From NCBI GenBank assembly GCA_016194335.1, contig JACQBR010000008.1, positions 864-64,863 on the forward strand: a stretch of 64,000 nt of DNA. The letters run 5' to 3'. This DNA is from Candidatus Micrarchaeota archaeon (GTDB lineage Archaea > Micrarchaeota > Micrarchaeia > Norongarragalinales > UBA97). Both the position numbers and the translations under genes were made by a program. Positions 4,792-62,777 of this stretch are shown one piece after another; position 1 is the stretch's first letter; each line of letters opens with the position of its first letter. Under the pieces are notes generated by a model, which made no database searches, was not told where the DNA came from, and saw nothing but the letters and a program-made list of their open reading frames with translations.

Positions 4792-7700
4792 ATGGTTAAC
4801 GACGTAAAGGATTTGGAAGAGCTTGTGAATTCCGTCTTGCCCCCCCAGTGCGAGCTTTCAAAAATAGAGCTCGAAGGCCCCCAGGTTGTGCTTTACCTCA
4901 AGAACATGCACGCGTTCTACGCCGACGTTAACCTCATCACGCGAATCGCTTCGAAAGTCCGCAAGAAGGTGCTCGTTCGTTCCGATTCCTCCATCCTAAT
5001 GCCTCCCGAAAGGGCGAAGGAAAAGGTCGCCGGCCTCATTCCCCCCGAGGCGGGAGTGAAGGAAATCCGTTTCGACCCGCATTTCAACGAGGTGCTCATC
5101 GAGGCCGCAAAGCCCGGGGTGGTAATCGGCAAGGGCGGAAGCGTGCTGAAAAGCATCACGCTCACCACCGGATGGTCCCCCCGCGTGCTCCGCGCGCCCA
5201 CGATGCCTTCCGAAATTGAGACTGCAATCCGAAACGCACTGCTTGCGGGCTCGGAGCAAAGGAAGAAATTCCTAGGGGTTTTTGGCAAGAGGATGCTGGG
5301 CGCCCCGGCCGCAACCGAGTGGGTGAAGATGACCGCGCTGGGAGGCTTTCGCGAAGTGGGCCGCAGCTGCTTTCTTTTGCAGACCCCGAAGAGCAACGTG
5401 ATTGTCGACTGCGGGCTCAACATCGACACCAGCGACGCCACGCGCGCCTATCCCTATCTCAACGCAATGGGGCTTTCGCTTGAGCAGATTGACGCGGTCA
5501 TCCTTTCGCACGCGCACCTCGACCACTGCCTCCATCCGGATTCCCTCATCCAGCTTGCAAACGGCGAAATAAGCAGCATTGAAGATTTGGCAGAACACGG
5601 CGGGGACGTCGTTTCTTACGATTTCGTTTCCGGCGCAACTGCAGGCGCTGTTGCAAGCAAGGGCGCTACTCAAAAGCCGGAAATGCTCAGGATCAAGACC
5701 AATTTATTCAGCATCCGCGCCACGCCAGAACACCGCTTTTTCGTCGTCAACGGCCTTGACGTGAGGGAAAAGCGCGCGGGAGAGCTGCGCGAGGGCGATT
5801 TCGTGGCGGCGCTGCGTTCAAGCAAATTCGAGGGAGCGGCAAACCAGCCTCTGCCCTTGGTGAAAGTGCAGGAGCTCGCTTTCATTTCGGGGGAAGGCAG
5901 GCTGAAAATGCGCCAAACGCGCGAGTCGTTCAAGCTGACCCGCAAGCAGGTTGCAGCAATTGCCGGAGTGCCGGCATGCCAATACGCATGGCTCGAATCG
6001 GGCAGGCACAAGCCGTCGAGGGAAAATTTGCAGAAATGCCTGCAGGCGCTGGGCCTGAAAACTCAGGATTTTGGGAATGAGGTTTCTGCAATCAAGTCGG
6101 CCGAGTTGCCCAAATTTTCAAGTGAGGAGTTCTGCCAGTTTTTGGGCTACGTCCTCGGCGACGGGAACGCGCACTATCAGGCGCACGATGCCAATTGCAA
6201 TGATTTGGCCGTGACGGACAAGGACGTGGCGAACCTCGAGTTTTACGCCCAGCTTGCAGAAAGGGTGTTCAATACAAAGCCGCGCTTTTCGCTCAAGGCG
6301 GGAACAAATGGCGGGAGAAACCGGGTGTTCTTCTCGTCCTACGTGACGAAGCTGATGTTCGCCTTGGACAAAGGGATTATTTGCCGCAGCCGCCAGCGCC
6401 GCGTACCCAAAATGATTCAGCGTGCGTCCAACGCCGAACTGGCCGCTTTCTTCCGCGGGCTTTTTGACGCCGAGGGGTCCGTGGGCCACCACTCGGTGAG
6501 GCTGGTCTCTTCAAGCGAGATGCTCTTGCGCGTGGCGCAGATGCTTCTATTGAGGCTGGGCGTGCAAAGCTGCATTGAAGAGCGCAAGGCGGTTTCGCAA
6601 AAAGCATTCTCCAAAGAGCCGTTCTACTGCCTTGCCATCACCCATCCCCGGTCGCTTTACGCATTCGGGGAGAAGATAGGCTTCTCATCAGAGGCGAAAT
6701 TGCAGAAATTCAAGGCGATGGCCGCCACCGTAGGCAATGCGCGCTCCGGAAAGGTTGACCTAATACCGATTGACGGTGCGGCGCTTAGGGCCGAATTGGC
6801 GGATGCGGGGTTGTTCGAAACCGATTTCGACTCCAGAATCTCCCGTTACTGGAACTGGAGCCACGCGCCGAGCAGGGAGGCAGTTGATGGAATCTGCGCG
6901 GGAATCGAAGCGCGTTTGCAGCTGCTGAAGACGGCTTCATCGCGGCAGGAGCTGCGAATAACGCAAGGGCAGGTCGGAAAGGCTTTGGGAGTGGACCAGT
7001 CGGTAGTTTCGGCAATCGAGCGCGGCAGAATCTCTTCGTGCAGCATTATCTACCGTGAGACGCAGGAGTTTTTGCACCTCTCCAGAGAAACCTGCATTTC
7101 AAAAGCGGAGCAACTTCTTCTCAAGTTGCGGATGCTCGTCTCGCAGGAGCTTGCGTGGGTGAAAATCAAGTCGATTGAAAATGAAACCCCGCCGGAGAAG
7201 GTTTACGACCTGAGCGTCCCCGGTTACGAGAACTTCGTTGCGGACGGTTTTGTCGTGCACAACTCCGGTTTCATCCCCTACCTCTACGCCTACGGCTACG
7301 AAGGCCCGGTCTACTGCACGCCCCCCACGCGGGACATGATGGTGCTTCTCCAGCAGGACTGCGTGAACGTGATGAATAGCGAGGGCGGCAAGGCCCCTTA
7401 CGGCGAGAGGGACATCAAGAAGGAGCTCATGCACGTGATCACCCGCGAGTACGGAGAGGTGACCGACGTGACGAGCGACATCCGCTTCACCTTCCACAAC
7501 GCGGGGCACATGATTGGAAGTTCCATCGTGCACATCCACATCGGCGAGGGCATGCACAACCTCATCTACTCCGGCGACATCAAGTTCGGCCGCACGAAAC
7601 TCTGCGACACCGCATCTACGCAATTCCCCCGCGCCGAGACGCTGATGATAGAGGCGACTTACGGCGGGCGCAACGACATCAAGCCGCGAATCGAGGATTG

Positions 7701-17994: not shown

Positions 17995-18149
17995 AACCAG
18001 ATTAGCGCTTAGCACATTTAAGTTACTTCCCAAAGGCCGGGAAGACACGGCTTTCCGCCAGCGCTTTCGATGCGGTGCGAAGCCAGCAAACCAAAGCAGC
18101 GTTTTACGCTAATCTGGCTTCACGCCGCAGAGCGACGAACGTAGCGAAT

Positions 18150-35888: not shown

Positions 35889-35941
35889 CTAAACCTTTTC
35901 TGCGGTGCTCCTCACTTCGTTCGTCCGCCCCTTGAAACGCG

Positions 35942-35994
35942 GCGTGAAGCAAGCAAATTAAAGCGGAGTTTCAGATACTCTTGCTTCACACCGC
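35942..35994. terminator. 10-11-bp inverted repeat (gtgaagcaag / cttgcttcac) with a 26-nt loop, downstream of tRNA-Pro
   Basis: ggcgtgaagcaagc...gcttgcttcacaccgc. Confidence 0.4.
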
Positions 35995-36080
35995 GAAGCT
36001 TTACCAGAAGCTGCGATGAAGAAAAGCCCTTGGGGAAAAGAAAGAACAATTTTTTTTACGAAAAGAATTTTTTTGACAGG

Positions 36081-38272: not shown

Positions 38273-38399
38273 CCCGCTGTAGCTCAATCTGGCAGAGCAC
38301 CTGACTGTAGCCAAAAAGCGCGCTTGCACGAATGCGATGAATGCAAGCCAGTCCTCGTCAGAAATCAGGGTGTTGGGAGTTCAAATCTCCCCAGCGGGA
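38273..38399 (+). tRNA. tRNA-Tyr (anticodon GTA) with a 53-nt intron at the canonical 37/38 position (38311..38363)
   Basis: Acceptor cccgctg/cagcggg, D-arm gctc..gagc, anticodon stem cctga/tcagg, loop cTGTAg then the intron, T-arm gggag-ttcaaat-ctccc. Confidence 0.75.
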
Positions 38400-46321: not shown

Positions 46322-49300
46322 ATGAAGGTCATTGGTGCGATTGAGTTCGGCGTTTTCTCCCCCGAGCAGGTGCGCAAGATGTCGGCCGTGAAGATCACCG
46401 TGCCCGACACTTACGACGAGGACGGCTACCCCATCAACGGCGGGCTTGCCGACCAGCACCTCGGCGTCATCGACCCGGGCCTGCGCTGCAAGTCCTGCGG
46501 CGGCCGCATGAAAAGCTGCTCGGGCCACTTCGGCCACATTGAGATGGTGCGGCCCGTCATCCACGTGGGGTTCGCAAAGGCCGTTTACCACCTGCTCAAG
46601 GCGACGTGCCGCAAGTGCTCCCGCCTGCTTGTCGAGGACAGCACTTTTGAGAAGCCCAAGAAGGCCGCGGTCTGCCCCCACTGCGCCGAGCAGCAGGGCG
46701 CGATAAAGTTTGTCAAGCCCACGAGCTTTTTCGAGGACGTGGGCGGCAAGGAAAGGAGGCTTTTGCCCAACGAAGTTCGCGAGAGGATGGAGCACATTTC
46801 CGACGAGGACCTCAACACCCTCGGCGTGAAAATCAGGCCCGAGTGGATGGTCCTTACCGTCCTCATCGTCCCTCCGGTCACCGTGCGCCCCAGCATCACC
46901 CTTGAGACGGGCGAGCGCAGCGAGGACGACCTCACCCACAAACTCGTGGACGTGCTGCGCATCAACCAGCGCCTCGGCGAGAACATCGACGCCGGCGCCC
47001 CGCAGCTCATCATCGAGGACTTGTGGGAGCTTCTCCAATACCACGTCGCGACTTTCTTCGACAACGAGACCGCAGGCATCCCGCCTGCAAGGCACCGCAG
47101 CGGAAGGCAGCTCAAGACGCTCTTCCAGCGCCTCAAGGGCAAGGAAGGCAGGTTCCGCTACAACCTTTCGGGCAAGCGCGTGAACTTCAGCGGCCGCACC
47201 GTCATTTCCCCCGACCCCACCCTCGGCATCAACGAGCTCGGGGTTTCCGAGCACATCGCAAGGGAGCTTACAGTCCCGATTTTCGTCACCGAATGGAATC
47301 TCGAGCCCATCAAGGAGCTTGTCAAGGGCCATCCGGAAAAAATCAATTACGTCATCCGCCCCGACGGCAAGCGCAAGAAGCTCATCGGCCTCAACATCGA
47401 GGAAGTGACGGCGGAAATCGTCCCCGGCTACACTGTGGAGCGGCAGCTTATGGATGACGACATCGTGATTTTCAACCGCCAGCCCAGCCTCCACCGCGTG
47501 AGCATGATGGCCCACCACGTCAAGGTCCTTCCGGGAAAGACTTTCCGCTTCAACTCCGCCGTCTGCAAGCCGTACAACGCCGACTTCGACGGGGACGAGA
47601 TGAACATCCACGTTCCGCAGAACGAGGAGGCGCAGGCCGAGGCGGAAATCCTCATGAAGGCCCAGGAGCAGATCCTCTCCCCCCGCAACGGCGAGCCCAT
47701 AGTAGTTCCCGAGCTCGATCAGATTTCCGGCCTTTACATGCTTACCGCCAAGGGCGTGGAATTCCCCCGTTCGGAAGCGGCGATGATGCTTTCCCGCGCC
47801 GGCGTCAACGACGCCGAGTTCAAGGGGGAGAAGGTTTCAGGACGGGAAATCCTCTCCGCGATTCTCCCCAAGGAATTCGACTTCGAATGCGCCAGCCTCG
47901 CGTTCCACCAGAAGTGCAAGGAGTGCCCCGGGGGCAAGTGCGCCGAGCACGACTCCACCGTAGTGGTGAAGAACGGCAAGTTTTTGCGCGGCCATCTCGA
48001 CGGCCGCTCGAGCGACAAGCTCGTCCGCGCGCTATTCAAGGAATTCGGAAGCGACGCGGCGGCGAAATACCTCGACGCGGCAACCAAGATTTCCGTCGAC
48101 GTTGCCACCGACTTCGGCATCTCCCTCTCGCTTGACGACTACGCCATTACGGACAAGACCCGCGGGGAGCTCGGCGAGCTTTACCTCACGGCGCACAAGG
48201 GGGTGCGCAAGCTCATCCAGAAATACCGCATGAAGAGGCTCGCGCGGCTGCCCGGCAAGACGCTCAAGGAGACGCTGGAGGAGCAGGTGATGGACATCCT
48301 CGAGGCGGTTCGCCACGACGCGTGGGGCATAATCAAGACCCACGTGCGCAAGCACCCCGTGAAGTTCGGCGGGGCGGAAATAATGCACAACTCCGCGCTT
48401 CTCATGGCCGACTCCGGCGCGAGGGGCAAGCCCATCAACGTCGTGCAGATGGCTGGCATCGTCGGCCAGCAGGCCGTGCGCGGAAAGCGCATGCGCTCAG
48501 GGTACAAGGGCCGCATCCTTTCCCACTTCGCAAAGGGCGACCTTTCCGACCTCGCGCGCGGGTTCGTGCGCGACAGTTACGTCCGCGGCCTTTCCCCCCA
48601 CGAGTACTTCTTCCACGCCGCAGGAGGCAGGGACAGCGTCGTTGACAAGGGAGTCAACCCCGCCAAGACGGGTTACATGCAGCGCAGGCTCATCAACGCC
48701 CTTCAGGACATCGTGGTGCAGAAGGACCTCACCGCAAGCGACGCGGAGGGGAAAATCATCCAGTTCAAGTACGGCGACGACGGGATGCACCCGGCGGGGA
48801 ACGCCGTGGCATACGGCGAGCCCGTGGGAGTGATCGCGGCTCAGAGCATCGGCGAGCCCGGAACGCAGATGTCCATCCCTTCGGGTGAAAAAGTGGTCGT
48901 AAGCATTGACGGCGCGATGAAACCCGTGGCAATCGGGGAGTTCGTGGACGGGCTCATCGAGAAGCATGGCTCGATCAAAATAGGCGGGGCTTCGGTTGTG
49001 GACCTTCCCCAAAGCGCAGGCATTTGCGTCCCCAGCCTCTCGCAGGAAGGCAAGGTTGTTTTCAAGAGGCTCATTTCCGCCAGCAGGCACGAGTGCGGAA
49101 AGAAAATCCTCGAGATAACCACGCGTTCGGGAAGGAAAATCCGCGCGACCGACAACCACTCCTTCGTCATCCGCAAGGACAACAGAATCATTCCCGTCAT
49201 GGGAAGTTCCCTCAAGGTCGGCCAGAGGATTCCCGTTGTCAAGTCCATGCCCTCCCCCGCACTGTTTGCCCAAGGTGCCGAGAGCCTTGATTTGCAGCAA

Positions 49301-51334
49301 CACCTTCCAAAGAGCACCCACTGGTTTGGAAGCGAACTCAAAAAGGCGCTTGCGCCGGGCGTGATAAGCCGCGCGGGCCACAATGTTTCGTACACTATTC
49401 CCGTGGGCGCGGATGCGTTAAGGCACTACGCGGGGCATGGGAATTCATTCGAAATCGAGGACGGCTTTGTCTATCCAGTGCAGAACCACGGCAACGCGAG
49501 GATTCCCGAATCAATGCCCCTCGACTCGAAATTCGGCTGGTTTGTCGGGGCCTACCTTTCCGAAGGCAGCCTGAGCAGGTACAACGTGGGCATTTCAAAC
49601 ACTGACTCCGAGTTCATCGCAAGGACGAAGGGATTCGCCGACTCCCTCGCGCTCAAATACGCGGAGAAGGCCAACAGCCGCGGCTTTGCCTTGGGCAACG
49701 GCCTTACCATCAATTCAACCCTGCTTTCCGAACTGTTGCAAAAGACCTGCGGCAAGGGCTCGTCAAGCAAGCGCGTTCCTGAATTCGCCTTCAGCGCAAA
49801 CGAAAAGTTCATCTCATCGCTTCTTTCGGCGTATTTCGATGGCGACGGCAACGTGACGATGGAGCGCAATGCGATTCGCGCCTCTTCCAACTCGAAGGAA
49901 CTGATTGACGGGGTTGCACTGCTGCTCTGCAGGCTTGGCATCTTCTGCACCAAGCACTTCGCTTCGGGCCAGCACTGCCTCTCCATTCCGGGGGCGTACG
50001 CAAACCGCTTCAGGGAGAAAATCGGCTTCGTGTGGGCCAAGAAGTCTTCCTTACTTGGGAAACTTTGCACCAAGGAAACCAAGCGCATCTCTTACGACAT
50101 TCTCGACATGAAAGTCGGGTTCGGAAGCGTGATAGGCGACGCCGCCAGGAAGCTCGGAGTGCCCTCCCGTTTGGTCAGCAAGTTCACCAAGAAGCAGGAA
50201 ATCGGCGTGAAGACGCTTGCGAAATACGTTGACAAGTTCGGGGAACTCTCGCGCCAAAATAGCATCAACGTGGATAAAGAGCTTTCCGTAATGAAAGCCA
50301 TGCTTGAGGAAGACGTGGCGTGGGACGAGATTGTCGAGGTGAAGTTCGTCGACTCCACGCCCCTGGTCTACGACTTTTCCGTCGAGGGGCTCGAGACGTT
50401 CGCCACCTTCGACGGCGTGATTACGCACAACACGCTGCGCACCTTCCACTACGCCGGAGTCGCCTCGCTCGCGCAGCTCGGCTTCACCCGACTGGTGGAA
50501 ATCGTCGACGCGACCAAGAAGCCGAAGAGCCCCGTGATGGAAGTCTACCTTCGCAAGGAGCTTTCCAAGGACTTCGAGAAGGTCAAGAAGTTCGCCGCTT
50601 CTCTTGAGCAGCTCACGCTGGAGCAGGTTGCCGATGTGAGGGAGAATTTCGACCGCAAGAGCATCCGCGTCACCTGGGACGAGAAGTCGCTTCACGACAA
50701 GGCGGTGAAGGAAGACGAGATTTTCGAGAAGGTCAAGCTCGTCGCCCCCGCGGAGAAGACCCAGACTGGAATCACCGTCCGCCCCAAGGCAGACAGCATC
50801 CGCAACACCCGCAAGATCACCAACAAGCTTCGCGAAATCATCCTGCGGGGAGTGGCGAACATTTCCCGCGCCATCATCATCGAAAAGGCAGGGGAGTACG
50901 TCGTGGCGACGGAAGGGAGCAACCTCGAAGGCTTGCTGAAGATTCCCGAAGTGGACTCCTCGCGCACCACCACCAACGACATTACCGAAACCTACCACGT
51001 GCTCGGGGTGGAGGCCGGCCGCAACTCCATAATGAACGAGATGCTCAAAGTGCTCACCGCCCAGGGGCTCAAGGTCGACGCGAGGCACATCATGCTCATT
51101 GCCGACTCGATGACCTCCAAGGGCAAGCTCACTTCAGTCGGAAGGCACGGCCTTGCGGGGGAGAAGAGATCCGTCCTCGCGCGCGCGGCCTTTGAAGAGA
51201 CTGCCAAGCACCTCCTCAACGCCTGCATCAAGGGCGAGGAAGACCCCCTTCAGGGAATTGCCGAGAACATCATCATCGGCCAGACCATCCCCTGCGGGAC
51301 GGGCAAGGTCAAGCTCGAGATGACCATTGAGTAG
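46322..51334 (+). CDS. rpoA: DNA-directed RNA polymerase subunit A with the A' and A'' portions fused in one ORF, interrupted by a 520-aa intein
   Basis: Rpb1 zinc ribbon and the NADFDGD active site lie in the N-terminal part. GEPGTQM is followed by the intein, then TLRTFHYAGVA of the A'' region. There is no stop codon between the A' and A'' regions. Confidence 0.9.
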   Translation: MKVIGAIEFGVFSPEQVRKMSAVKITVPDTYDEDGYPINGGLADQHLGVIDPGLRCKSCGGRMKSCSGHFGHIEMVRPVIHVGFAKAVYHLLKATCRKCSRLLVEDSTFEKPKKAAVCPHCAEQQGAIKFVKPTSFFEDVGGKERRLLPNEVRERMEHISDEDLNTLGVKIRPEWMVLTVLIVPPVTVRPSITLETGERSEDDLTHKLVDVLRINQRLGENIDAGAPQLIIEDLWELLQYHVATFFDNETAGIPPARHRSGRQLKTLFQRLKGKEGRFRYNLSGKRVNFSGRTVISPDPTLGINELGVSEHIARELTVPIFVTEWNLEPIKELVKGHPEKINYVIRPDGKRKKLIGLNIEEVTAEIVPGYTVERQLMDDDIVIFNRQPSLHRVSMMAHHVKVLPGKTFRFNSAVCKPYNADFDGDEMNIHVPQNEEAQAEAEILMKAQEQILSPRNGEPIVVPELDQISGLYMLTAKGVEFPRSEAAMMLSRAGVNDAEFKGEKVSGREILSAILPKEFDFECASLAFHQKCKECPGGKCAEHDSTVVVKNGKFLRGHLDGRSSDKLVRALFKEFGSDAAAKYLDAATKISVDVATDFGISLSLDDYAITDKTRGELGELYLTAHKGVRKLIQKYRMKRLARLPGKTLKETLEEQVMDILEAVRHDAWGIIKTHVRKHPVKFGGAEIMHNSALLMADSGARGKPINVVQMAGIVGQQAVRGKRMRSGYKGRILSHFAKGDLSDLARGFVRDSYVRGLSPHEYFFHAAGGRDSVVDKGVNPAKTGYMQRRLINALQDIVVQKDLTASDAEGKIIQFKYGDDGMHPAGNAVAYGEPVGVIAAQSIGEPGTQMSIPSGEKVVVSIDGAMKPVAIGEFVDGLIEKHGSIKIGGASVVDLPQSAGICVPSLSQEGKVVFKRLISASRHECGKKILEITTRSGRKIRATDNHSFVIRKDNRIIPVMGSSLKVGQRIPVVKSMPSPALFAQGAESLDLQQHLPKSTHWFGSELKKALAPGVISRAGHNVSYTIPVGADALRHYAGHGNSFEIEDGFVYPVQNHGNARIPESMPLDSKFGWFVGAYLSEGSLSRYNVGISNTDSEFIARTKGFADSLALKYAEKANSRGFALGNGLTINSTLLSELLQKTCGKGSSSKRVPEFAFSANEKFISSLLSAYFDGDGNVTMERNAIRASSNSKELIDGVALLLCRLGIFCTKHFASGQHCLSIPGAYANRFREKIGFVWAKKSSLLGKLCTKETKRISYDILDMKVGFGSVIGDAARKLGVPSRLVSKFTKKQEIGVKTLAKYVDKFGELSRQNSINVDKELSVMKAMLEEDVAWDEIVEVKFVDSTPLVYDFSVEGLETFATFDGVITHNTLRTFHYAGVASLAQLGFTRLVEIVDATKKPKSPVMEVYLRKELSKDFEKVKKFAASLEQLTLEQVADVRENFDRKSIRVTWDEKSLHDKAVKEDEIFEKVKLVAPAEKTQTGITVRPKADSIRNTRKITNKLREIILRGVANISRAIIIEKAGEYVVATEGSNLEGLLKIPEVDSSRTTTNDITETYHVLGVEAGRNSIMNEMLKVLTAQGLKVDARHIMLIADSMTSKGKLTSVGRHGLAGEKRSVLARAAFEETAKHLLNACIKGEEDPLQGIAENIIIGQTIPCGTGKVKLEMTIE
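48872..50431 (+). mobile_element. Intein (520 aa) with a LAGLIDADG homing endonuclease, inserted at GEPGTQM|TLRTFH of RpoA''
   Basis: Starts with Ser (SIPSGEKVVV), ends VITHN with +1 Thr. Internal LAGLIDADG blocks GWFVGAYLSEGSL and LLSAYFDGDGNV. Confidence 0.8.
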
Positions 51335-54575: not shown

Positions 54576-54647
54576 GGCCCAGCTTGTGTTTTGATTTTTT
54601 TTTTGGCTTTTGTTTGCAGGCAATTCATAGGGGATTAGTGGATCACA

Positions 54648-56870
54648 ATGGCACGAAAGGAAGTTGTCGTCGACGAAGTCGTCCGCCTCATGGGCGCGCG
54701 GGAATACATCCGCAACATGGGCATAGTCGCGCACGTGGATCACGGAAAAGGCTAAAGCCACATTGCGGGCTTTGCTTACGGTCAGACCACGCTGAGCGAC
54801 TCTCTCGTAGCAGTAGCGGGGCTCATTTCCCGCGACCTGGCCGGGGAGCAGCGCGTGCTCGATTACGACCCTCAGGAGCAGGCGCGCGGAATCACGATCA
54901 AGGCCGCGAACATCTCCCTTGGGTTCAACTACGAGAACCAGGATTACATCATCAACATGATTGACACTCCCGGCCACGTGGACTTCGGCGGCCACGTCAC
55001 GCGCGCCATGCGCGCCGTTGACGGCGTGATTCTCGTCATTGACAGCGTGGAGGCCATCATGCCGCAGACAGAGACGGTGCTGCGCCAGGCGCTCAAGGAG
55101 AAAGTGCGCCCCGTGCTCTTCATCAACAAGATAGACCGGCTCATCAACGAGCTCAAGCTCGACTCGAAGGGGATGCAGGAGAGGTTCCTCAAAATCATCA
55201 GCGGGGTGAACAAGCTCATCGCCACCTACGCGCCCGACGAGTTCAAGCAGGAGTGGCAGCTCAGCGTGGAAAAGGGCAACGTGGCTTTCGGAACCGGCTT
55301 TCACAAGTGGGCCGTTTCGTACCCCATCATGAAAAAGACGGGAATGAACTTCAAGGAGCTTTACGACTTATGCGCCGCTGACAACCACGCCGAACTGCGC
55401 AAGAAGGCGCCGCTTGAGGAAGTCATTCTCGAAATCGTCGTGAGGAACCTCCCGTCGCCCATCACGGCGCAGAAATACCGCATTCCCGTCATCTGGCACG
55501 GGGACAAGGGGAACGCGTGGGGCAGGGGAATGCTCACCTGCGACCCGAAGGCGCCCGCCTGCTTCATGGTAACGGCGGTGCAGGTGGACGAGCACGCCGG
55601 CGAAGTGGCAATCGGCCGCCTCTACTCCGGAACGATACGGAAAGGGACCGAACTCTATCTCGCGGGCCAGTTCAAGAACCAGAAGGTGCAGAGCGTCGCG
55701 ATTTACATGGGCCCCGACCGCGTGCTCGTGGACGAAGTGCCTTCGGGCAACATCGTCGCCGTCATCGGGCTCAAGGACGTGTTTGCAGGCGAGACGGCAA
55801 GCGAAGGCCAGATGGACGCATTCGAAAAGATCAAGCACCACTCCGTGCCCGTCGTGACCAAGAGCGTGGAGGCTAAAAACCCCCGCGACCTCGTCAAGCT
55901 CATCGAAGTCCTACAGAAATTGGGCAAGGAAGACCCCACCATCCGGGTTGAAATCAACCAGCAGACGGGCGAGCACCTCATTTCCGGAATGGGTGAGCTG
56001 CACCTCGAAATCATCGAGTACAAGATTGCCAAGGAAAGGGGCGTGGAGATCGAGACGTCCCCGCCGATTGTGGTCTACCAGGAGGCCGTCCTCGAGCGCG
56101 GGCCCGAGCTTGAGGGCAAGTCGCCGAACAAGCACAACAAGTTCAAGCTCGAAGTGATGCCTCTTGAGGAAGGCGTGCGCAAGGCCATCGAGGAAGGCAC
56201 GATTGACGAGCGCACGAAGGGCAAGGAGCTTGTCGAGAAGCTCATCGCAGCGGGGCTGGAGCGGGATGAGGCGAAGAAAATCATCTGCATCCACCGCGAC
56301 AACATCTTCATCGACGCGTCGAAGGGAGTGCAGTTCCTCCAGGACATCAAGGAGCTGCTCATCCAGGCTTTCGAGGAGGCCGTCGAGCAGGGGCCGCTTG
56401 CCAAGGAGAAAGTCGTGGGGCTAAAAGTGCTTCTCAACGACGCGGTGATCCACGTCGACCCGGCCCACCGCGGGCCCGCGCAGGTCTTCCCCGCAATCAA
56501 GCGCCCGCTCTACGCAGGCATGGTCATGGCGAAGTGCGTGCTTTTCGAACCCAAGCAGAAGCTCGTGGTCAACGCTCCCGCCGAGTACATGAGCAACATA
56601 ATCCAGAGCATCCAGGGAAGGCGCGGGCAGGTGCTTGACATCGCGCAGGACGGCGAGCTCATCAACGTGACGGCCAAAGTCCCAGTCGCCACCATGTTCG
56701 GCTTTGCCTCCGACATCCGCGGGGCGTCGCAAGGCCGCGCCGCGTGGTATTACGAATACGCCGGTTACGAACAGCTGCCCTCGAGCTTGCAGGGACCGAC
56801 GATCGCGGCCATCCGCAAGCGCAAGGGCGAGAACGAAACCCCGCCGACGGCGAAGGACTTTCTGGACTAA
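54648..56870 (+). CDS. fusA: Elongation factor 2 (aEF-2), interrupted by a 36-nt in-frame insertion (54750..54785) that carries a TAA stop
   Basis: [34 protein letters not shown], then the insertion encoding [11 protein letters not shown], then [12 protein letters not shown].... Deleting exactly 36 nt restores the consensus G1 motif AHVDHGKTTLSD. Everything downstream through [11 protein letters not shown] and the C-terminus is EF-2. Confidence 0.85.
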
Positions 56871-57031: not shown

Positions 57032-58264
57032 CTAATTCCAGCTTGCCATCCTTACGGCCTTCTTTCCCCTGCGGCTCGGCCTTCGCTTGCCCGGCCTCCT
57101 GCGCAATGCCACCGCGGCGTAATTGAGGCCGAGCGGGACGGCCTTGGCTATTTCGGGAAGCGCAGCGCCGGCAGAGGCAGCGCCGGCATAGCCTAAAACC
57201 GGGACGGAATACGGCGGGGTGAACTCCGGCCTTGCGGCAAGGCGTACTGTCTTTGCCGCCTGCACCGCCGCCAGTGCCTTCCGCCTGTTGGCAATGTATT
57301 TCCTGTCGCTGGCGCTTAGGTAGTTTCTCCGAAACCTTCGAAAGGCGCCCCAGCCGCCGTCCTTGTACGAGAGATTGAGGTAGTCCTGCAGCTTTTTGTG
57401 GTTGATGTTATTGTAGTTTGTCCCTCTGTTGATGAGGTTTCGAAGAAGACGGTTGGCGTTGAAGAAAGCCGTGTGCACGGCGTTGGTGACGTTGAGGCGA
57501 ATGCGCCTTTCATTCTCCGCCCCGATTTCCCCGGGCGTGAGCTCGCGGGGCGTCTTTCCCTTCATCCGGGCGAATCTCTCCAAGTCCTTTTGGTAGACCT
57601 CTTCAAATTCGGAAGTGTCAAGCCTCGTGGAAACGGAGCGGAGCGCGTCCCCAACCGCCTTCGGGGGGATTAATGGCCGCATTTCAAAAAGTTTAGTTCC
57701 CGCCGGCACCGCCCCGTCCTTGATTGCCTGGCTGAGAGATTCATCCGTGACTTGGCCGAGGCCGTTTGCAAAAATCTCGCCATTCCTGTTTCGCAAAGGC
57801 ACGACCGCCTTGTCGCCGCCGCCTTTGACAACCCTGAAGTTGGCGTCCCAAGGAGCCAGTCCGCTTTCGGCAATCAGAATAGCGTGGATGAAATCGGGGG
57901 TGACGAACCTCGAGGCATCGGCGTAATTGAGGTCGGCATTGTGCCTTGCAACTTCGGCCCGAATGGCTTCGTTGATCAGTCCGCTCGCGTCGGGGATGCC
58001 CGTGTGCCGCTCGGTAAGATAGTATTCGGGATGCCCCAAAATTTCTGCAGCTTTGCGGTGGTCCACTTTTTCCCTTCGTTCGAACATTCCGGCAGCAGAC
58101 TGCGCGGCCACCTTCCGCTCGAATTCCTGGCGCGGGGCGCTGTTGAACTTCACTTCGCCCGCCTTGAGGAGCCCCATCAGTGCCAGGGCCGGCAGGAGCC
58201 TCTTTGCGATTCTGGCGGTTCCACCGACTCCCTGCCTTCTTGAATTTTCCGACGCGCGGGTCAT
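57032..58264 (-). CDS. Secreted protein with a lytic-transglycosylase (SLT/lysozyme-like) domain
   Basis: Signal peptide RLLPALALMGLLKAG. IAESGLAPWDAN...ANGLGQV resembles the SLT motif ES..P.A.S..GA.GLMQ. Start taken at MTRASENS. Confidence 0.45.
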   Translation of the reverse strand: MTRASENSRRQGVGGTARIAKRLLPALALMGLLKAGEVKFNSAPRQEFERKVAAQSAAGMFERREKVDHRKAAEILGHPEYYLTERHTGIPDASGLINEAIRAEVARHNADLNYADASRFVTPDFIHAILIAESGLAPWDANFRVVKGGGDKAVVPLRNRNGEIFANGLGQVTDESLSQAIKDGAVPAGTKLFEMRPLIPPKAVGDALRSVSTRLDTSEFEEVYQKDLERFARMKGKTPRELTPGEIGAENERRIRLNVTNAVHTAFFNANRLLRNLINRGTNYNNINHKKLQDYLNLSYKDGGWGAFRRFRRNYLSASDRKYIANRRKALAAVQAAKTVRLAARPEFTPPYSVPVLGYAGAASAGAALPEIAKAVPLGLNYAAVALRRRPGKRRPSRRGKKAVRMASWN

Positions 58265-58352
58265 AATTATGCTTTTGTCCGTCCGCCTCTTTAAAACCTC
58301 CCGCGCCGATGGGGAGTCGGCCTTAAATATCTCCGGCAGCGTTCTGTTTCCG

Positions 58353-59090
58353 ATGGACCGCAAAACCGCTCGCAAGCTCGCCCACGCCGAGATGGAGATG
58401 CGGCGTTCGGACGAAGGGTCGTTCCTAAGGCAGATCATCCTCGGCGGCCAGGATGGCCTTGTGAATGTGTTGGGCGTGCTTCTCGGAGTCGCGTCGGGCA
58501 CTTCCGACACCGGCATCGTAATCATCGCCGGGCTTGCCGCGACTTTTGCGGAGAGCATTTCCATGGCCGCAGTCGCCTACACCTCCTCGAAGGCAGAGCA
58601 GGATTTCTACCGCAAGGAGTTCGAGAGGGAAAAGCGGGAAATAAGGGAGCTTCCCGAGGTGGAGACCGAGGAGATTCGCCTCATTTACATGAAAAAGGGG
58701 TTCCGGGGCAGCCAACTCAATTCCATCGTGAAGAAAATCACTTCCGACCAGAAGGTCTGGCTGCAGGTGATGATGCAGGAGGAACTCGGCCTTTCCGAGT
58801 CGGAGAAGGTTAACCCCCTGCGCGAGGGAATCGTAGTGGGTCTTGCGGCTTTGGCCGGCTCGCTCGTCCCCCTCATCCCGTTCTTCCTCCTTCCCCTCCA
58901 GTCCGCGGTAATCGCCTCGCTGGCGGTTTCGATAATGGCGCTTTTCGCCATGGGCGCATACAAGGGCAAGCTCACGCTTGGCGACTGGATGCGAAGCGGG
59001 TTTGAGATTGCAGTCATCGGCATGATAGCCGCCATTGCGGGCTACGCAATCGGCGCGGCTGCCGGAAACGCCAAACTGGGCACGGGATAG
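58353..59090 (+). CDS. VIT1/CCC1-family Fe/Mn transporter
   Basis: Cytoplasmic N-terminal helix then GGQDGLVNVLGVLLGVASG. Five TM helices. Start at MDRKTARKL. Confidence 0.7.
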   Translation: MDRKTARKLAHAEMEMRRSDEGSFLRQIILGGQDGLVNVLGVLLGVASGTSDTGIVIIAGLAATFAESISMAAVAYTSSKAEQDFYRKEFEREKREIRELPEVETEEIRLIYMKKGFRGSQLNSIVKKITSDQKVWLQVMMQEELGLSESEKVNPLREGIVVGLAALAGSLVPLIPFFLLPLQSAVIASLAVSIMALFAMGAYKGKLTLGDWMRSGFEIAVIGMIAAIAGYAIGAAAGNAKLGTG

Positions 59091-59171: not shown

Positions 59172-59723
59172 TTATTTCCAGAAGGAGCCCAGCCAGCTGA
59201 AGAAGCCTGAAAGAAAGTCGTAGATTCCGTTGCCTTGCGTGACGGCGAGGCCGGTAACGGGGGCCGGTTCGCCTGAAGAAGCGGGTTGGCCTGCGCCTTC
59301 AGTTTCGGCCAACTCTATTTTCGCTTCCGCCCTCGCCTCCGCCCCTCCCGAATCCGAGGCAACCGCCCTCACCGTAATCGTGCCCGGCGCCTGCACGAGT
59401 TTGAGCCTGCAGGAATATTCGCAGGAAATCCCGCCGCATTCGCCCCGGCCCATTCTTTCAAACTCCAGCAAAACCCCTTTCGGATCGTAAGCCGAGCATT
59501 GCGCCGACTTTTCCACAACGTCGCCGGCGCCGTTGTTGTCCGAAATGGAGAAAACCGCCTCGAGCCCGCCCCCCCGCGCAACTGCGCTCTCAAAACGGAT
59601 TTCGGGAGGCGAGTTGGCGATGCTCACGCTCGTGCCCACCGCGTCGGCTGCGACAAAATTGGCCGGGAGGACGAGCATCAAGACTGCAATTGCTGCGGCA
59701 ATGAGGTTCAAACTTTTTTTCAT
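59172..59723 (-). CDS. Secreted hypothetical protein with a signal peptide
   Basis: MKKSLNLIAAAIAVLMLVLPA signal peptide. Cys pairs. Confidence 0.4.
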   Translation of the reverse strand: MKKSLNLIAAAIAVLMLVLPANFVAADAVGTSVSIANSPPEIRFESAVARGGGLEAVFSISDNNGAGDVVEKSAQCSAYDPKGVLLEFERMGRGECGGISCEYSCRLKLVQAPGTITVRAVASDSGGAEARAEAKIELAETEGAGQPASSGEPAPVTGLAVTQGNGIYDFLSGFFSWLGSFWK

Positions 59724-59740
59724 GTCGTTTTCCATCTCCT

Positions 59741-61499: not shown

Positions 61500-62777
61500 A
61501 TGTCTGACAAACCGCACTTGAACCTGATTTTCACCGGCCACGTCGACCACGGCAAGTCCACTTCGGTCGGCAGGCTGCTTTACGAAACCGGCGCGCTTAG
61601 CGAAAACGAGCTGCGCAAGCTCAAGGAAGAGGCGGTCAAGGTGGGCAAGGCGACTTTCGAATTCGCCTTCGCAATGGACAAGCTCAAGGAGGAACGCGAG
61701 CGCGGGGTCACCATCGACATCGCCCACCGCGACTTCACAACCAACAAGTTTTACTTCACCATCATCGACGCGCCGGGGCACAAGGACTTCGTGAAGAACA
61801 TGATTACCGGCGCGAGCCAAGCCGACGCGGCGGTGCTGGTCTGCTCGGCAAAGGAAGGCATCCAGGCCCAGACGATTGAGCACGCGTTCCTCCTCAAGGT
61901 GCTTGGAGTGAGCCAGTTCATCATCGGCGTTAACAAGATGGACGCGGTCAACTACGACAGGCAGGCTTTCGAGAAGACCAAGATGGAGCTTTCCGCCAAG
62001 CTCAAGCCCATGGGCTACCCGGTTGACAAGATTAACTTCATCCCCTACAGCGCCTACCAGGGCGACAACGTCGCGAAGAAGAGCGACAAGATGGCGTGGT
62101 ACACCGGCCCGACCCTGCTTGAGGCCCTTGACCTGCTTGTCGAGCCGAAGAAGCCCACCGACAAGCCCCTGCGACTGCCGATTCAGGAAGTTTTCACCAT
62201 CACCGGCCAGGGGACCGTTCCCGTTGGCCGCGTGGAGTCGGGCATCCTCAAGCCCAACATGGCAGTAATCATCATGCCTGCGAACAAGACGGGTGAGGTG
62301 AAGACGATTGAAATGCACCACCAGCAGCTAACGCAGGCCATTCCCGGCGACAACGTCGGCTTTGCCCTCAAGGGAGTTGACAAGAAGGACATCACCCGCG
62401 GCAACGTGCTAGGGGACCCCAAGAGCCCGCCCACCGTCGCCGAGGAATTCACCGCGCAAATCGTGGTGCTCAACCACCCCACCGCAATAGGGAAGAACTA
62501 CGCGCCCGTCTTCCACATCCACACGGCCCAGCTGGCGTGCTCGATTACCGAACTGGTCGAGAGGAAGGACCCCAAGACCGGCCAGACGGCGCAGAAGAAC
62601 CCCGAGTTCATCAAGACCGGCGACGTCGCAATCATCAAGGTCAAGCCCACCAAGCCCGTGGTTGTCGAGAAATACGGCGACTTTCCCGCTTTGGGGAGGT
62701 TCGCCATCCGCGACATGGGACAGACCGTCGCCGCTGGCATCGTGCTCGAAGTGGTCCCCAAGAAGGACCTCAAGTAA
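61500..62777 (+). CDS. tuf: Elongation factor 1-alpha
   Basis: GHVDHGKST, DAPGH and NKMD G-motifs. 425 aa. Confidence 0.95.
   Translation: MSDKPHLNLIFTGHVDHGKSTSVGRLLYETGALSENELRKLKEEAVKVGKATFEFAFAMDKLKEERERGVTIDIAHRDFTTNKFYFTIIDAPGHKDFVKNMITGASQADAAVLVCSAKEGIQAQTIEHAFLLKVLGVSQFIIGVNKMDAVNYDRQAFEKTKMELSAKLKPMGYPVDKINFIPYSAYQGDNVAKKSDKMAWYTGPTLLEALDLLVEPKKPTDKPLRLPIQEVFTITGQGTVPVGRVESGILKPNMAVIIMPANKTGEVKTIEMHHQQLTQAIPGDNVGFALKGVDKKDITRGNVLGDPKSPPTVAEEFTAQIVVLNHPTAIGKNYAPVFHIHTAQLACSITELVERKDPKTGQTAQKNPEFIKTGDVAIIKVKPTKPVVVEKYGDFPALGRFAIRDMGQTVAAGIVLEVVPKKDLK

Follow-up and report, generated by a model that had tools for sequence, protein, structure and literature searches.

We examined the gene fusA, which encodes elongation factor 2 (EF-2), in a 64,000-nucleotide stretch of contig JACQBR010000008.1 from Candidatus Micrarchaeota archaeon (GenBank assembly GCA_016194335.1), the whole of which is called the window below. 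The gene lies on the forward strand with an ATG at 54648 and a stop codon at 56868–56870 (span 54648–56870), and in its translation 36 extra nt with an in-frame TAA separate AHVDHGK from TTLSD. The frame begins MARKE..., runs into ggc taa agc cac att gcg ggc ttt gct tac ggt cag (54750–54785), and past 54785 is open through to the stop codon. A preliminary description of this stretch had reported a 36-nt, in-frame, TAA-bearing insertion splitting the fusA P-loop, and it is exactly as described there in sequence and translation; a second, identical locus is treated below. The insertion falls inside the codon of the catalytic P-loop Lys of essential EF-2. The best EF-2 matches, labelled Micrarchaeota or Norongarragalinales, are at most 81% identical, and EF-2 domains are present in the fusA homologues. 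The inserted 36-mer occurs once in the window (chance expectation 0); no further exact or near copy was found there, and blastn-short against the window and about 90 fetched loci gave chance-level matches only, so that a repeated element was rejected. Comparison of DNA and predicted folds, from which the splicing event and the identity of the enzyme are deduced, makes it highly probable that the insert represents a tRNA-type bulge-helix-bulge (BHB) intron with a relaxed motif, situated inside a coding sequence.

Interrupted fusA alleles in other assemblies

An independent Logan assembly of SRR12113410 (locus L092) agrees with the window at every position over 4.5 kb, and this includes the insert. 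Among the best 120 EF-2 homologues there were also three proteins (P0011, P0075, P0086) that begin just past the P-loop, and on their contigs a stub open reading frame (ORF) of 35–43 residues is followed by a short gap and then by the remainder of EF-2. The inserts at the P-loop measure 31 nt in locus L001, 36 nt in L002 and 39 nt in L003, all in fusA of Micrarchaeota (sources Logan SRR22388059, ENA ERZ978281 and GenBank FWPU01009192). The preliminary description had proposed that relatives be checked for the same insert; site and phase are indeed shared by L001–L003, but the sequences of these three inserts and that of the window are all mutually different. In total, interrupted fusA genes were found on five contigs from four or more datasets. 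An assembly or sequencing artefact, an option raised in the preliminary description, might be suspected in a window that apparently comes from a metagenome-assembled genome, but the same insert is present in the independent Logan assembly and comparable inserts are present in three other datasets. Because the inserts recur in other assemblies, whether identical (L092) or analogous (L001–L003), assembly error is excluded, and the chance of an artefact of either kind is negligible.

All four inserts have an early in-frame stop, and that of L001, at 31 nt, is not a multiple of three; on both counts the inserts are untranslatable. An intein would be an in-frame insert that opens with Cys, Ser or Thr, closes with His-Asn and contains splicing blocks. 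An intein or intein remnant was rejected in view of the in-frame stop, the 31-nt length in L001, and the absence of likeness to intein ends or intein DNA. A group I or group II self-splicing intron was rejected as well, since 31–39 nt are too few for a catalytic core of hundreds of nt, and Rfam gave no match at the fusA insert even at E ≤ 10.

Downstream of the insert, 694 open codons follow in the window and in each of L001, L002 and L003. The ratio of nonsynonymous to synonymous divergence (dN/dS) is 0.13–0.15 for interrupted alleles against their relatives, the same as in comparisons with uninterrupted alleles, while dS between interrupted alleles is 0.9–1.7, i.e. saturated. Because of this low dN/dS and the 694 open codons in all four, the interrupted genes are considered functional and are under purifying selection. 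The contrary possibility is an inactivated gene, either a pseudogene or a repair scar left by an intein homing endonuclease, with EF-2 supplied from elsewhere. It gains something from the position of the insert, 2 nt from the relatives' intein insertion point, and from the view being confined to 64 kb of genome, so that a second copy is possible. However, four divergent lineages have kept the open codons and the low dN/dS, and the helix formed between the two exons (below) has been perfected at synonymous sites, which implies selection on the interrupted allele itself. Moreover, tblastn found no second fusA within the window and none was present on the contigs of the interrupted relatives; the preliminary description's statement that EF-2 is single-copy thus holds, for the window only. 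We consider inactivation very unlikely.

Probable excision boundary and predicted RNA structure

For each allele we listed all excisions that have the observed length and bring back DHGKTTLSD. In the window, three 36-nt removals (54748–54783, 54749–54784 and 54750–54785) each restore H-G-K-T-T, with Lys encoded by AAG, AAG and AAA respectively, and the unique boundary claimed in the preliminary description has to be corrected accordingly. Counted from where the Gly codon ends, permitted positions are +1 to +3 in the window, -1 to +4 in L001, -4 to +1 in L002 and -4 to +4 in L003. The only ORF-restoring position common to all four alleles is +1 (GGA A|), and for this reason the intron is placed at 54748–54783, 2 nt upstream of the earlier boundary. 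The +1 boundary also has the best BHB score in each of the four, and none of the other permitted boundaries came close to it. Joined there, the window reads CAC GGA AAG ACC ACG, and the two exons (54648..54747 and 54784..56870) form a single ORF of 728 residues with the motif AHVDHGKTTLSD intact.

By the BHB rule, two 3-nt bulges on opposite strands are separated by four central pairs (PMC12397907; PMC2738675), and cleavage takes place between the second and third bulge nucleotides, as in the ARMAN-2 endonuclease-RNA structure (PMC12397907) and in cbf5 (PMC2738675). The preliminary description could build no such motif, the reason being that it tried no boundary besides aaa|acc; at that boundary, or at a -1 shift, a canonical BHB has 0–2 central pairs and no adjoining pairing in either flanking helix, and it was rejected. 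With both sites moved 2 nt upstream (GGA A | ... GGUC | AG ACC) a relaxed BHB of suitable geometry forms in the window (Table 1), and L001, L002 and L003 have the same predicted structure and splice phase. The palindrome ggct-aa-agcc, noted in the preliminary description, is not the relevant hairpin; in the predicted fold AAAGCC pairs with GGCUUU.

Table 1. Coordinates in the window of the fusA exons, the proposed intron and the elements of the predicted pre-mRNA fold.
Feature	Position	Strand	Remarks
fusA exon 1	54648..54747	+	ATG to base 1 of the Lys codon in the P-loop (...CAC GGA A); translation
Exon-exon helix h, 5' strand (GUCGCGCACGUGG A UC)	54726..54741	+	minimum free energy (MFE) pairing with 54785-54800
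Central helix H, 5' strand (ACGG)	54742..54745	+	BHB model
Bulge B1 (AA|A)	54746..54748	+	predicted 5' splice site between 54747 and 54748
Proposed BHB-type intron, 36 nt, AAGGCUAAAGCCACAUUGCGGGCUUUGCUUACGGUC	54748..54783	+	phase 1 within the Lys codon
Intron hairpin h' (AGGC-U-AAAGCC / loop ACAUUGCG / GGCUUU-GCUU)	54749..54777	+	MFE folds
In-frame TAA in the proposed intron	54753..54755	+	unspliced mRNA would yield a product of 35 residues
Central helix H, 3' strand (ACGG)	54778..54781	+	BHB model
Bulge B2 (UC|A)	54782..54784	+	predicted 3' splice site between 54783 and 54784
fusA exon 2	54784..56870	+	AG ACC ACG ... to the stop codon; 694 open codons downstream
Exon-exon helix h, 3' strand (GA CCACG C UGAGCGAC)	54785..54800	+	pairing, folds

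In the window the hairpin h' starts at the second base of the intron and the exon-exon helix starts right after the 3' bulge. In all four alleles the bulges are separated by four positions and the cuts are placed symmetrically, and in all four the predicted cuts between the second and third bulge positions coincide with the join that restores the ORF. At +1, the required BHB pairs (H plus the first four pairs of h') number 23 of 32, with P = 4e-5 against shuffled introns. Unconstrained MFE folds of the four pre-mRNAs give the same rod, composed of exon helix, central helix, bulges at the splice sites and hairpin, with fold z-scores of -3.2, -4.0, -4.1 and -3.5. The sequences conform to a relaxed hBH/HBh'-type motif and depart from the strict canonical one. 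The central core in the relatives is CGG/CYG with bulges of AA|A or AA|U, and the 3' bulge is AA|A in the three relatives and in the intron of the window's tRNA-Tyr, vs UC|A in the window's fusA.

That tRNA-Tyr(GUA), at 38273–38399 (+), was used as a control of the BHB model. It matches Rfam and was missed by ARAGORN because of a 53-nt intron (38311–38363) at the canonical position 37/38. In the model, the helix corresponding to h, i.e. the anticodon stem, has 5/5 pairs, the central helix has 3/4 pairs, and the bulge is AA|A. The intron-bearing tRNA-Tyr implies that splicing machinery exists in this organism and that relaxed BHB motifs are processed by it. ARAGORN on 39 loci yielded no further tRNA-intron controls.

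The exon-exon helix pairs GUCGCNCACGUNG, the codons for V-A-H-V-D, with CNACG-YUGAGYGAY, the codons for T-T-L-S-D. In a fixed register, 12 of the 13 possible pairs of helix h form in the window and 13, 13 and 13 in the other interrupted alleles, while the 31 uninterrupted Micrarchaeota alleles average 9.8 of 13 (standard deviation 1.2, maximum 12); at least 12 pairs are found in 4/4 interrupted vs 1/31 uninterrupted alleles (hypergeometric P about 1e-4). The third bases of the Val and first Thr codons are G-C, C-G, A-U and G-C in the four interrupted alleles and form a Watson-Crick pair in 10/31 uninterrupted ones. CAC-GGA-A is present in 4/4 interrupted vs 5/31 uninterrupted alleles, and Leu YUG and Ser AGY are used in all four interrupted alleles. 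The closest uninterrupted relative of L003 (L094, 87% protein identity) has GGC for Gly, ACA-ACC, and 10/13 pairs in h. In the four-sequence alignment 87% of cells are paired, vs 23–40% with slid partners; both sides have changed at five pairs, four of them in the intron hairpin, and the outer four h' pairs are compensatory between the window and L002. Because dS is saturated, this agreement in pairing does not reflect inherited identity. Selection thus acts on an RNA structure that makes sense only if the insert leaves the RNA. The natural self-complementarity of the P-loop coding sequence may be why this site can host an intron.

The alternative of programmed translational bypass, in which the ribosome would hop over the gap by way of matching codons while the mRNA keeps the 36 nt, had been offered in the preliminary description. 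One such case, phage T4 gene 60, needs matched take-off and landing codons, and its gap remains in the mRNA; like the fusA insert, it is a short untranslated gap with a stop codon and hairpin inside an essential gene. In fusA, too, a stop codon soon follows a possible take-off site in all alleles and there is a hairpin within the gap, and the inserts of L002 and L003 are flanked by GGA...GGA, at which a hop by Gly-tRNA would yield H-G-K-T-T. Unlike T4 gene 60, however, the window has no matched take-off and landing pair that restores H-G-K-T-T, GGA...GGA being confined to L002 and L003. A hop from GGA to GGU would yield H-G-Q-T-T and lose the invariant Lys, for AAA there is no AAR codon to land on ahead of ACC, and a hop from GGC to GGC would leave a 6-residue insert in the P-loop. 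L001 likewise has no GGA landing codon, and a landing from AAA on AAG in another frame would be required. Bypass would also leave unexplained the mutual pairing of synonymous sites 20–50 nt away in both exons. On this evidence we regard bypass as highly improbable.

The reading as a protein-coding mini-intron removed from the mRNA, which had been one candidate in the preliminary description, is supported by the comparison of four alleles. If it is correct, fusA would be transcribed with the 36 nt included, and in the pre-mRNA the V-A-H-V-D codons would pair with the T-T-L-S-D codons to form a 13-bp exon-exon helix. The short central helix and the intron hairpin would adjoin this helix, leaving a small bulge on each of the two strands. 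Cuts by the tRNA-splicing endonuclease would fall after 54747 and 54783, between the second and third bulge nucleotides, and an RtcB-type ligase would join the exons to give ...CAC GGA A-AG ACC ACG..., that is H-G-K-T-T with the P-loop restored; the expected spliced junction would be ...CACGGAA|AGACCACG.... Unspliced mRNA would be translated only as far as the TAA, after 35 residues.

Several points weigh against BHB splicing of this insert. The motif is non-canonical, with 2/4 standard pairs in the central helix of the window (C-G and G-C, with A.G and G.A on either side) and 3/4 in L001–L003; one of the "bulges" in L002 and in L003 belongs to a larger internal loop; and the MFE fold of the window has a slightly different register about the central helix. 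The covariation statistics are thin, with four alleles only, and we infer the excision itself from the sequence and the predicted folds. Endonuclease and ligase genes were not seen in the 64-kb window, where no systematic search for them was made. A broad-specificity epsilon2 endonuclease is known from Micrarchaeum (ARMAN-1/2) and the related Mancarchaeum, and it is documented for these two only and not for the order to which the window belongs (PMC12397907; PMC5829648). The weakness of the central helix relative to a textbook BHB, together with the indirect identification of the enzyme, could also suggest that the RNA is excised by another route, for example by a different structure-specific RNase and a ligase acting on the same rod. 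The predicted cuts nevertheless fall exactly at the second and third bulge positions in all four alleles and in the tRNA-Tyr intron, and the splicing endonuclease provides the sole such excise-and-religate pathway of archaea in reviews (PMC10485636), so a different route is improbable, if slightly less so than bypass or gene inactivation.

Relation to known RNA-spliced genes

Archaeal protein-coding genes are generally taken to be intron-free. Watanabe 2002 and Yoshinari 2006 are said to have reported BHB introns in cbf5 pre-mRNA of Crenarchaeota. In the literature found, BHB splicing of archaeal mRNA is represented only by cbf5, within the coding sequence, and by the 5' untranslated region of Haloferax HVO_1309 (PMC2738675; PMC7714728; PMC10485636), and a 2023 review considers that more such introns probably "remain to be discovered". 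Literature on BHB introns of Micrarchaeota and DPANN archaea and on inteins or introns at the EF-2 P-loop contained no account of the fusA case. Provided that splicing and the enzymes are as proposed, the fusA intron would join a very rare class, for which crenarchaeal cbf5 was the only coding-sequence case in the literature found.

The cbf5 introns of Desulfurococcales and Sulfolobales (Yokobori 2009) are 16–44 nt long and lie in phase 1 in the codon of the catalytic Asp (PMC2738675). The fusA inserts resemble them in being short (31–39 nt) and within the coding sequence, in lying in phase 1 of a catalytic-residue codon (P-loop Lys rather than Asp), in a BHB of relaxed or unconventional form that is cut (for fusA, is predicted to be cut) between the second and third bulge nucleotides, in partial sequence conservation among introns, suggesting common origin, in a patchy distribution read as gain and loss, and in hosts from a lineage whose endonuclease is of broad specificity. 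They differ in that fusA encodes an essential translation GTPase and its carriers are DPANN Micrarchaeota rather than TACK archaea, in that the cbf5 enzyme is of (alpha-beta)2 type whereas an epsilon2 type is expected for fusA, in the long 13-bp exon-exon helix derived from self-complementary P-loop coding sequence, and in the rarity of the fusA insert within its clade (0/33 readable GTDB representatives). Splicing has been shown experimentally for cbf5, whereas the fusA case is known from sequence alone. HVO_1309 of Haloferax volcanii likewise provides the archaeal splicing endonuclease with an mRNA substrate, but its intron is in an untranslated leader, where no frame is interrupted, and combines a canonical BHB with an alpha2-type enzyme (PMC7714728; PMC10485636). 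Archaeal pre-tRNA introns, including that of the window's tRNA-Tyr, share with the fusA insert the same geometry (h, 3-nt bulge, central helix of four positions, 3-nt bulge, h') and the cleavage rule, and the tRNA-Tyr intron resembles the fusA alleles further in its AA|A bulge and imperfect 3/4 central helix. In contrast to pre-tRNA, the host RNA is an mRNA and h is built from two coding segments, not from an anticodon stem. Outside archaea, HAC1/XBP1 mRNA is spliced in the cytoplasm without a spliceosome by the endonuclease Ire1 and a tRNA ligase or RtcB, with a change of frame. This resembles the fusA proposal in having a small structured mRNA intron, a structure-specific endonuclease and rejoining by a tRNA ligase, but it is eukaryotic, with another nuclease and stem-loop motif, and belongs to a regulated stress response.

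If confirmed, this would be a second coding-sequence case, in another superphylum and in a highly conserved essential gene, and mRNA splicing by the tRNA endonuclease would be no crenarchaeal oddity; rather, wherever self-complementary coding sequence and an enzyme of broad specificity come together, such splicing would arise. For annotation there is also a practical implication. Gene callers break this gene up into a stub of 35 residues and an EF-2 truncated at its N-terminus, and as phylogenies and completeness estimates use EF-2 as a standard marker, interrupted alleles are mis-annotated or counted as broken.

Distribution, possible origin and neighbouring loci

The species representatives of GTDB, a set that leaves out the window's own genome, provided 36 loci, 33 with a readable fusA P-loop: 31 uninterrupted, 2 with an intein and 0 with a mini-insert. 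The best 120 EF-2 proteins included 4 from interrupted alleles and about 9 with inteins. Truncated P0125 and P0123 were rejected as interrupted alleles, their truncation being due to contig ends, as were P0074, P0055, P0034, P0038, P0059 and P0082, which have normal P-loops. A second protein search seeded with P0086 gave no more interrupted alleles, and a metagenome scan with a degenerate P-loop...gap...TTLSD pattern returned only L055 (the known contig of L003), eukaryotic genes with GT..AG introns, and chance matches. The eukaryotic genes are EF-2/EFL1-like GTPase genes (L040/L084, L049/L075, L052, L056, L069) whose GT...AG spliceosomal introns of 27–51 nt sit between the Gly and Lys codons of AHVDHGK|TTL; the mechanism is unrelated, and the position is strikingly similar.

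In a neighbour-joining EF-2 tree the interrupted alleles are not monophyletic: the window groups with uninterrupted L004, L002 with L007/L009/L036, and L003 with L031. All four inserts nonetheless have GGCUU(U) in common, about equally far from the 3' end (shuffling gave P of about 1e-4 to 3e-3) and in the window within hairpin h', and the window and L002 have an identical 36-nt layout with a covarying outer stem. Because this motif and layout are shared despite non-monophyly, the pattern points to either a common origin followed by many losses or lateral spread of the putative introns. The contig of L002 has, directly downstream of fusA at 5463–6493 (-), a transposase pair (DDE_3/HTH) and toxin-antitoxin genes (PIN/MazE).

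Many Micrarchaeota carry an EF-2 intein between the P-loop Lys and Thr (GK|C...HN|TT), 2 nt downstream of the insert site. Carriers include P0008, P0010, P0025, P0049, P0063, P0070, P0072 (about 1247 residues), P0080 and P0083 (mini), and loci L029 and L030; intein and mini-insert occurred together in no allele seen. Both elements interrupt the same motif of the same gene and are sporadically distributed, but the intein is removed at the protein level, comprises 170–520 residues in frame and often contains a LAGLIDADG endonuclease, whereas the mini-insert lacks coding capacity and does not resemble intein DNA. The window also includes an ORF for RNA polymerase subunit A at 46322–51334 (+), of 1670 residues with Rpb1 domains 1–5 in one frame, interrupted by a LAGLIDADG intein at about residues 904–1370. 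Homing-type inteins therefore exist in the genome of the window, whereas its fusA has the mini-insert.

More speculatively, and in our judgement with a rather low probability, the mini-insert might descend, in degenerate form, from a mobile BHB intron once homed to the P-loop site, or might make an RNA-spliced allele conferring immunity against the intein, or its splicing might couple EF-2 synthesis to tRNA-splicing activity. In the case of immunity, the intron could owe its retention to its disrupting the site that the EF-2 intein homing endonuclease recognises. The mobile-descendant and immunity readings are retained because the shared GGCUU(U) suggests homology, yet carriers scatter among uninterrupted relatives, and because intein and insert are never together in one allele. 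An RNA intron and a protein intron at most 2 nt apart in one motif would be a natural system for the study of competition between selfish elements and hosts over conserved sites.

Upstream of fusA, the plus strand carries in order L7Ae (52642), a NusA-like KH protein (52956), S12 (53441) and S7 (53889). The operon rps12-rps7-fusA-tuf-rps10 named in the preliminary description thus stands as far as S12, S7 and fusA are concerned, but tuf is not adjacent, being positioned 4.6 kb downstream of fusA at 61500–62777, past ORFs on the opposite strand. Two ORFs with no Pfam match, 57032–58564 (-) of 510 residues and 59172–59735 (-) of 187 residues, sit between fusA and an arginase-family gene plus tuf and disrupt the usual str-operon order. 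In the spacer between S7 and fusA, a T-rich tract at 54590–54615 contains TTTTTGGCTTTTG and resembles the GGCUUUG motif of the inserts; it has an 11-mer in common with the insert of L002 (blastn E about 3), probably by chance.

A naive scan for BHB-like motifs that would fuse ORFs if removed gave more than 1200 matches across the window, had no discriminating power and was dropped. An inverted-repeat scan for other exon-exon helices gave a candidate at 18071–18129, which was rejected as an intergenic hairpin beside a spurious antisense ORF. This hairpin and a second one at 35938–35995 are related, with the form GCGGCGTGAAGC[C/A]AG ... CT[G/T]GCTTCAC[A/G]CCGC, arms of 16 nt and a spacer of 26–27 nt, and constitute a structured repeat with no Rfam family; one is positioned just 3' of tRNA-Pro and the other between divergent genes.

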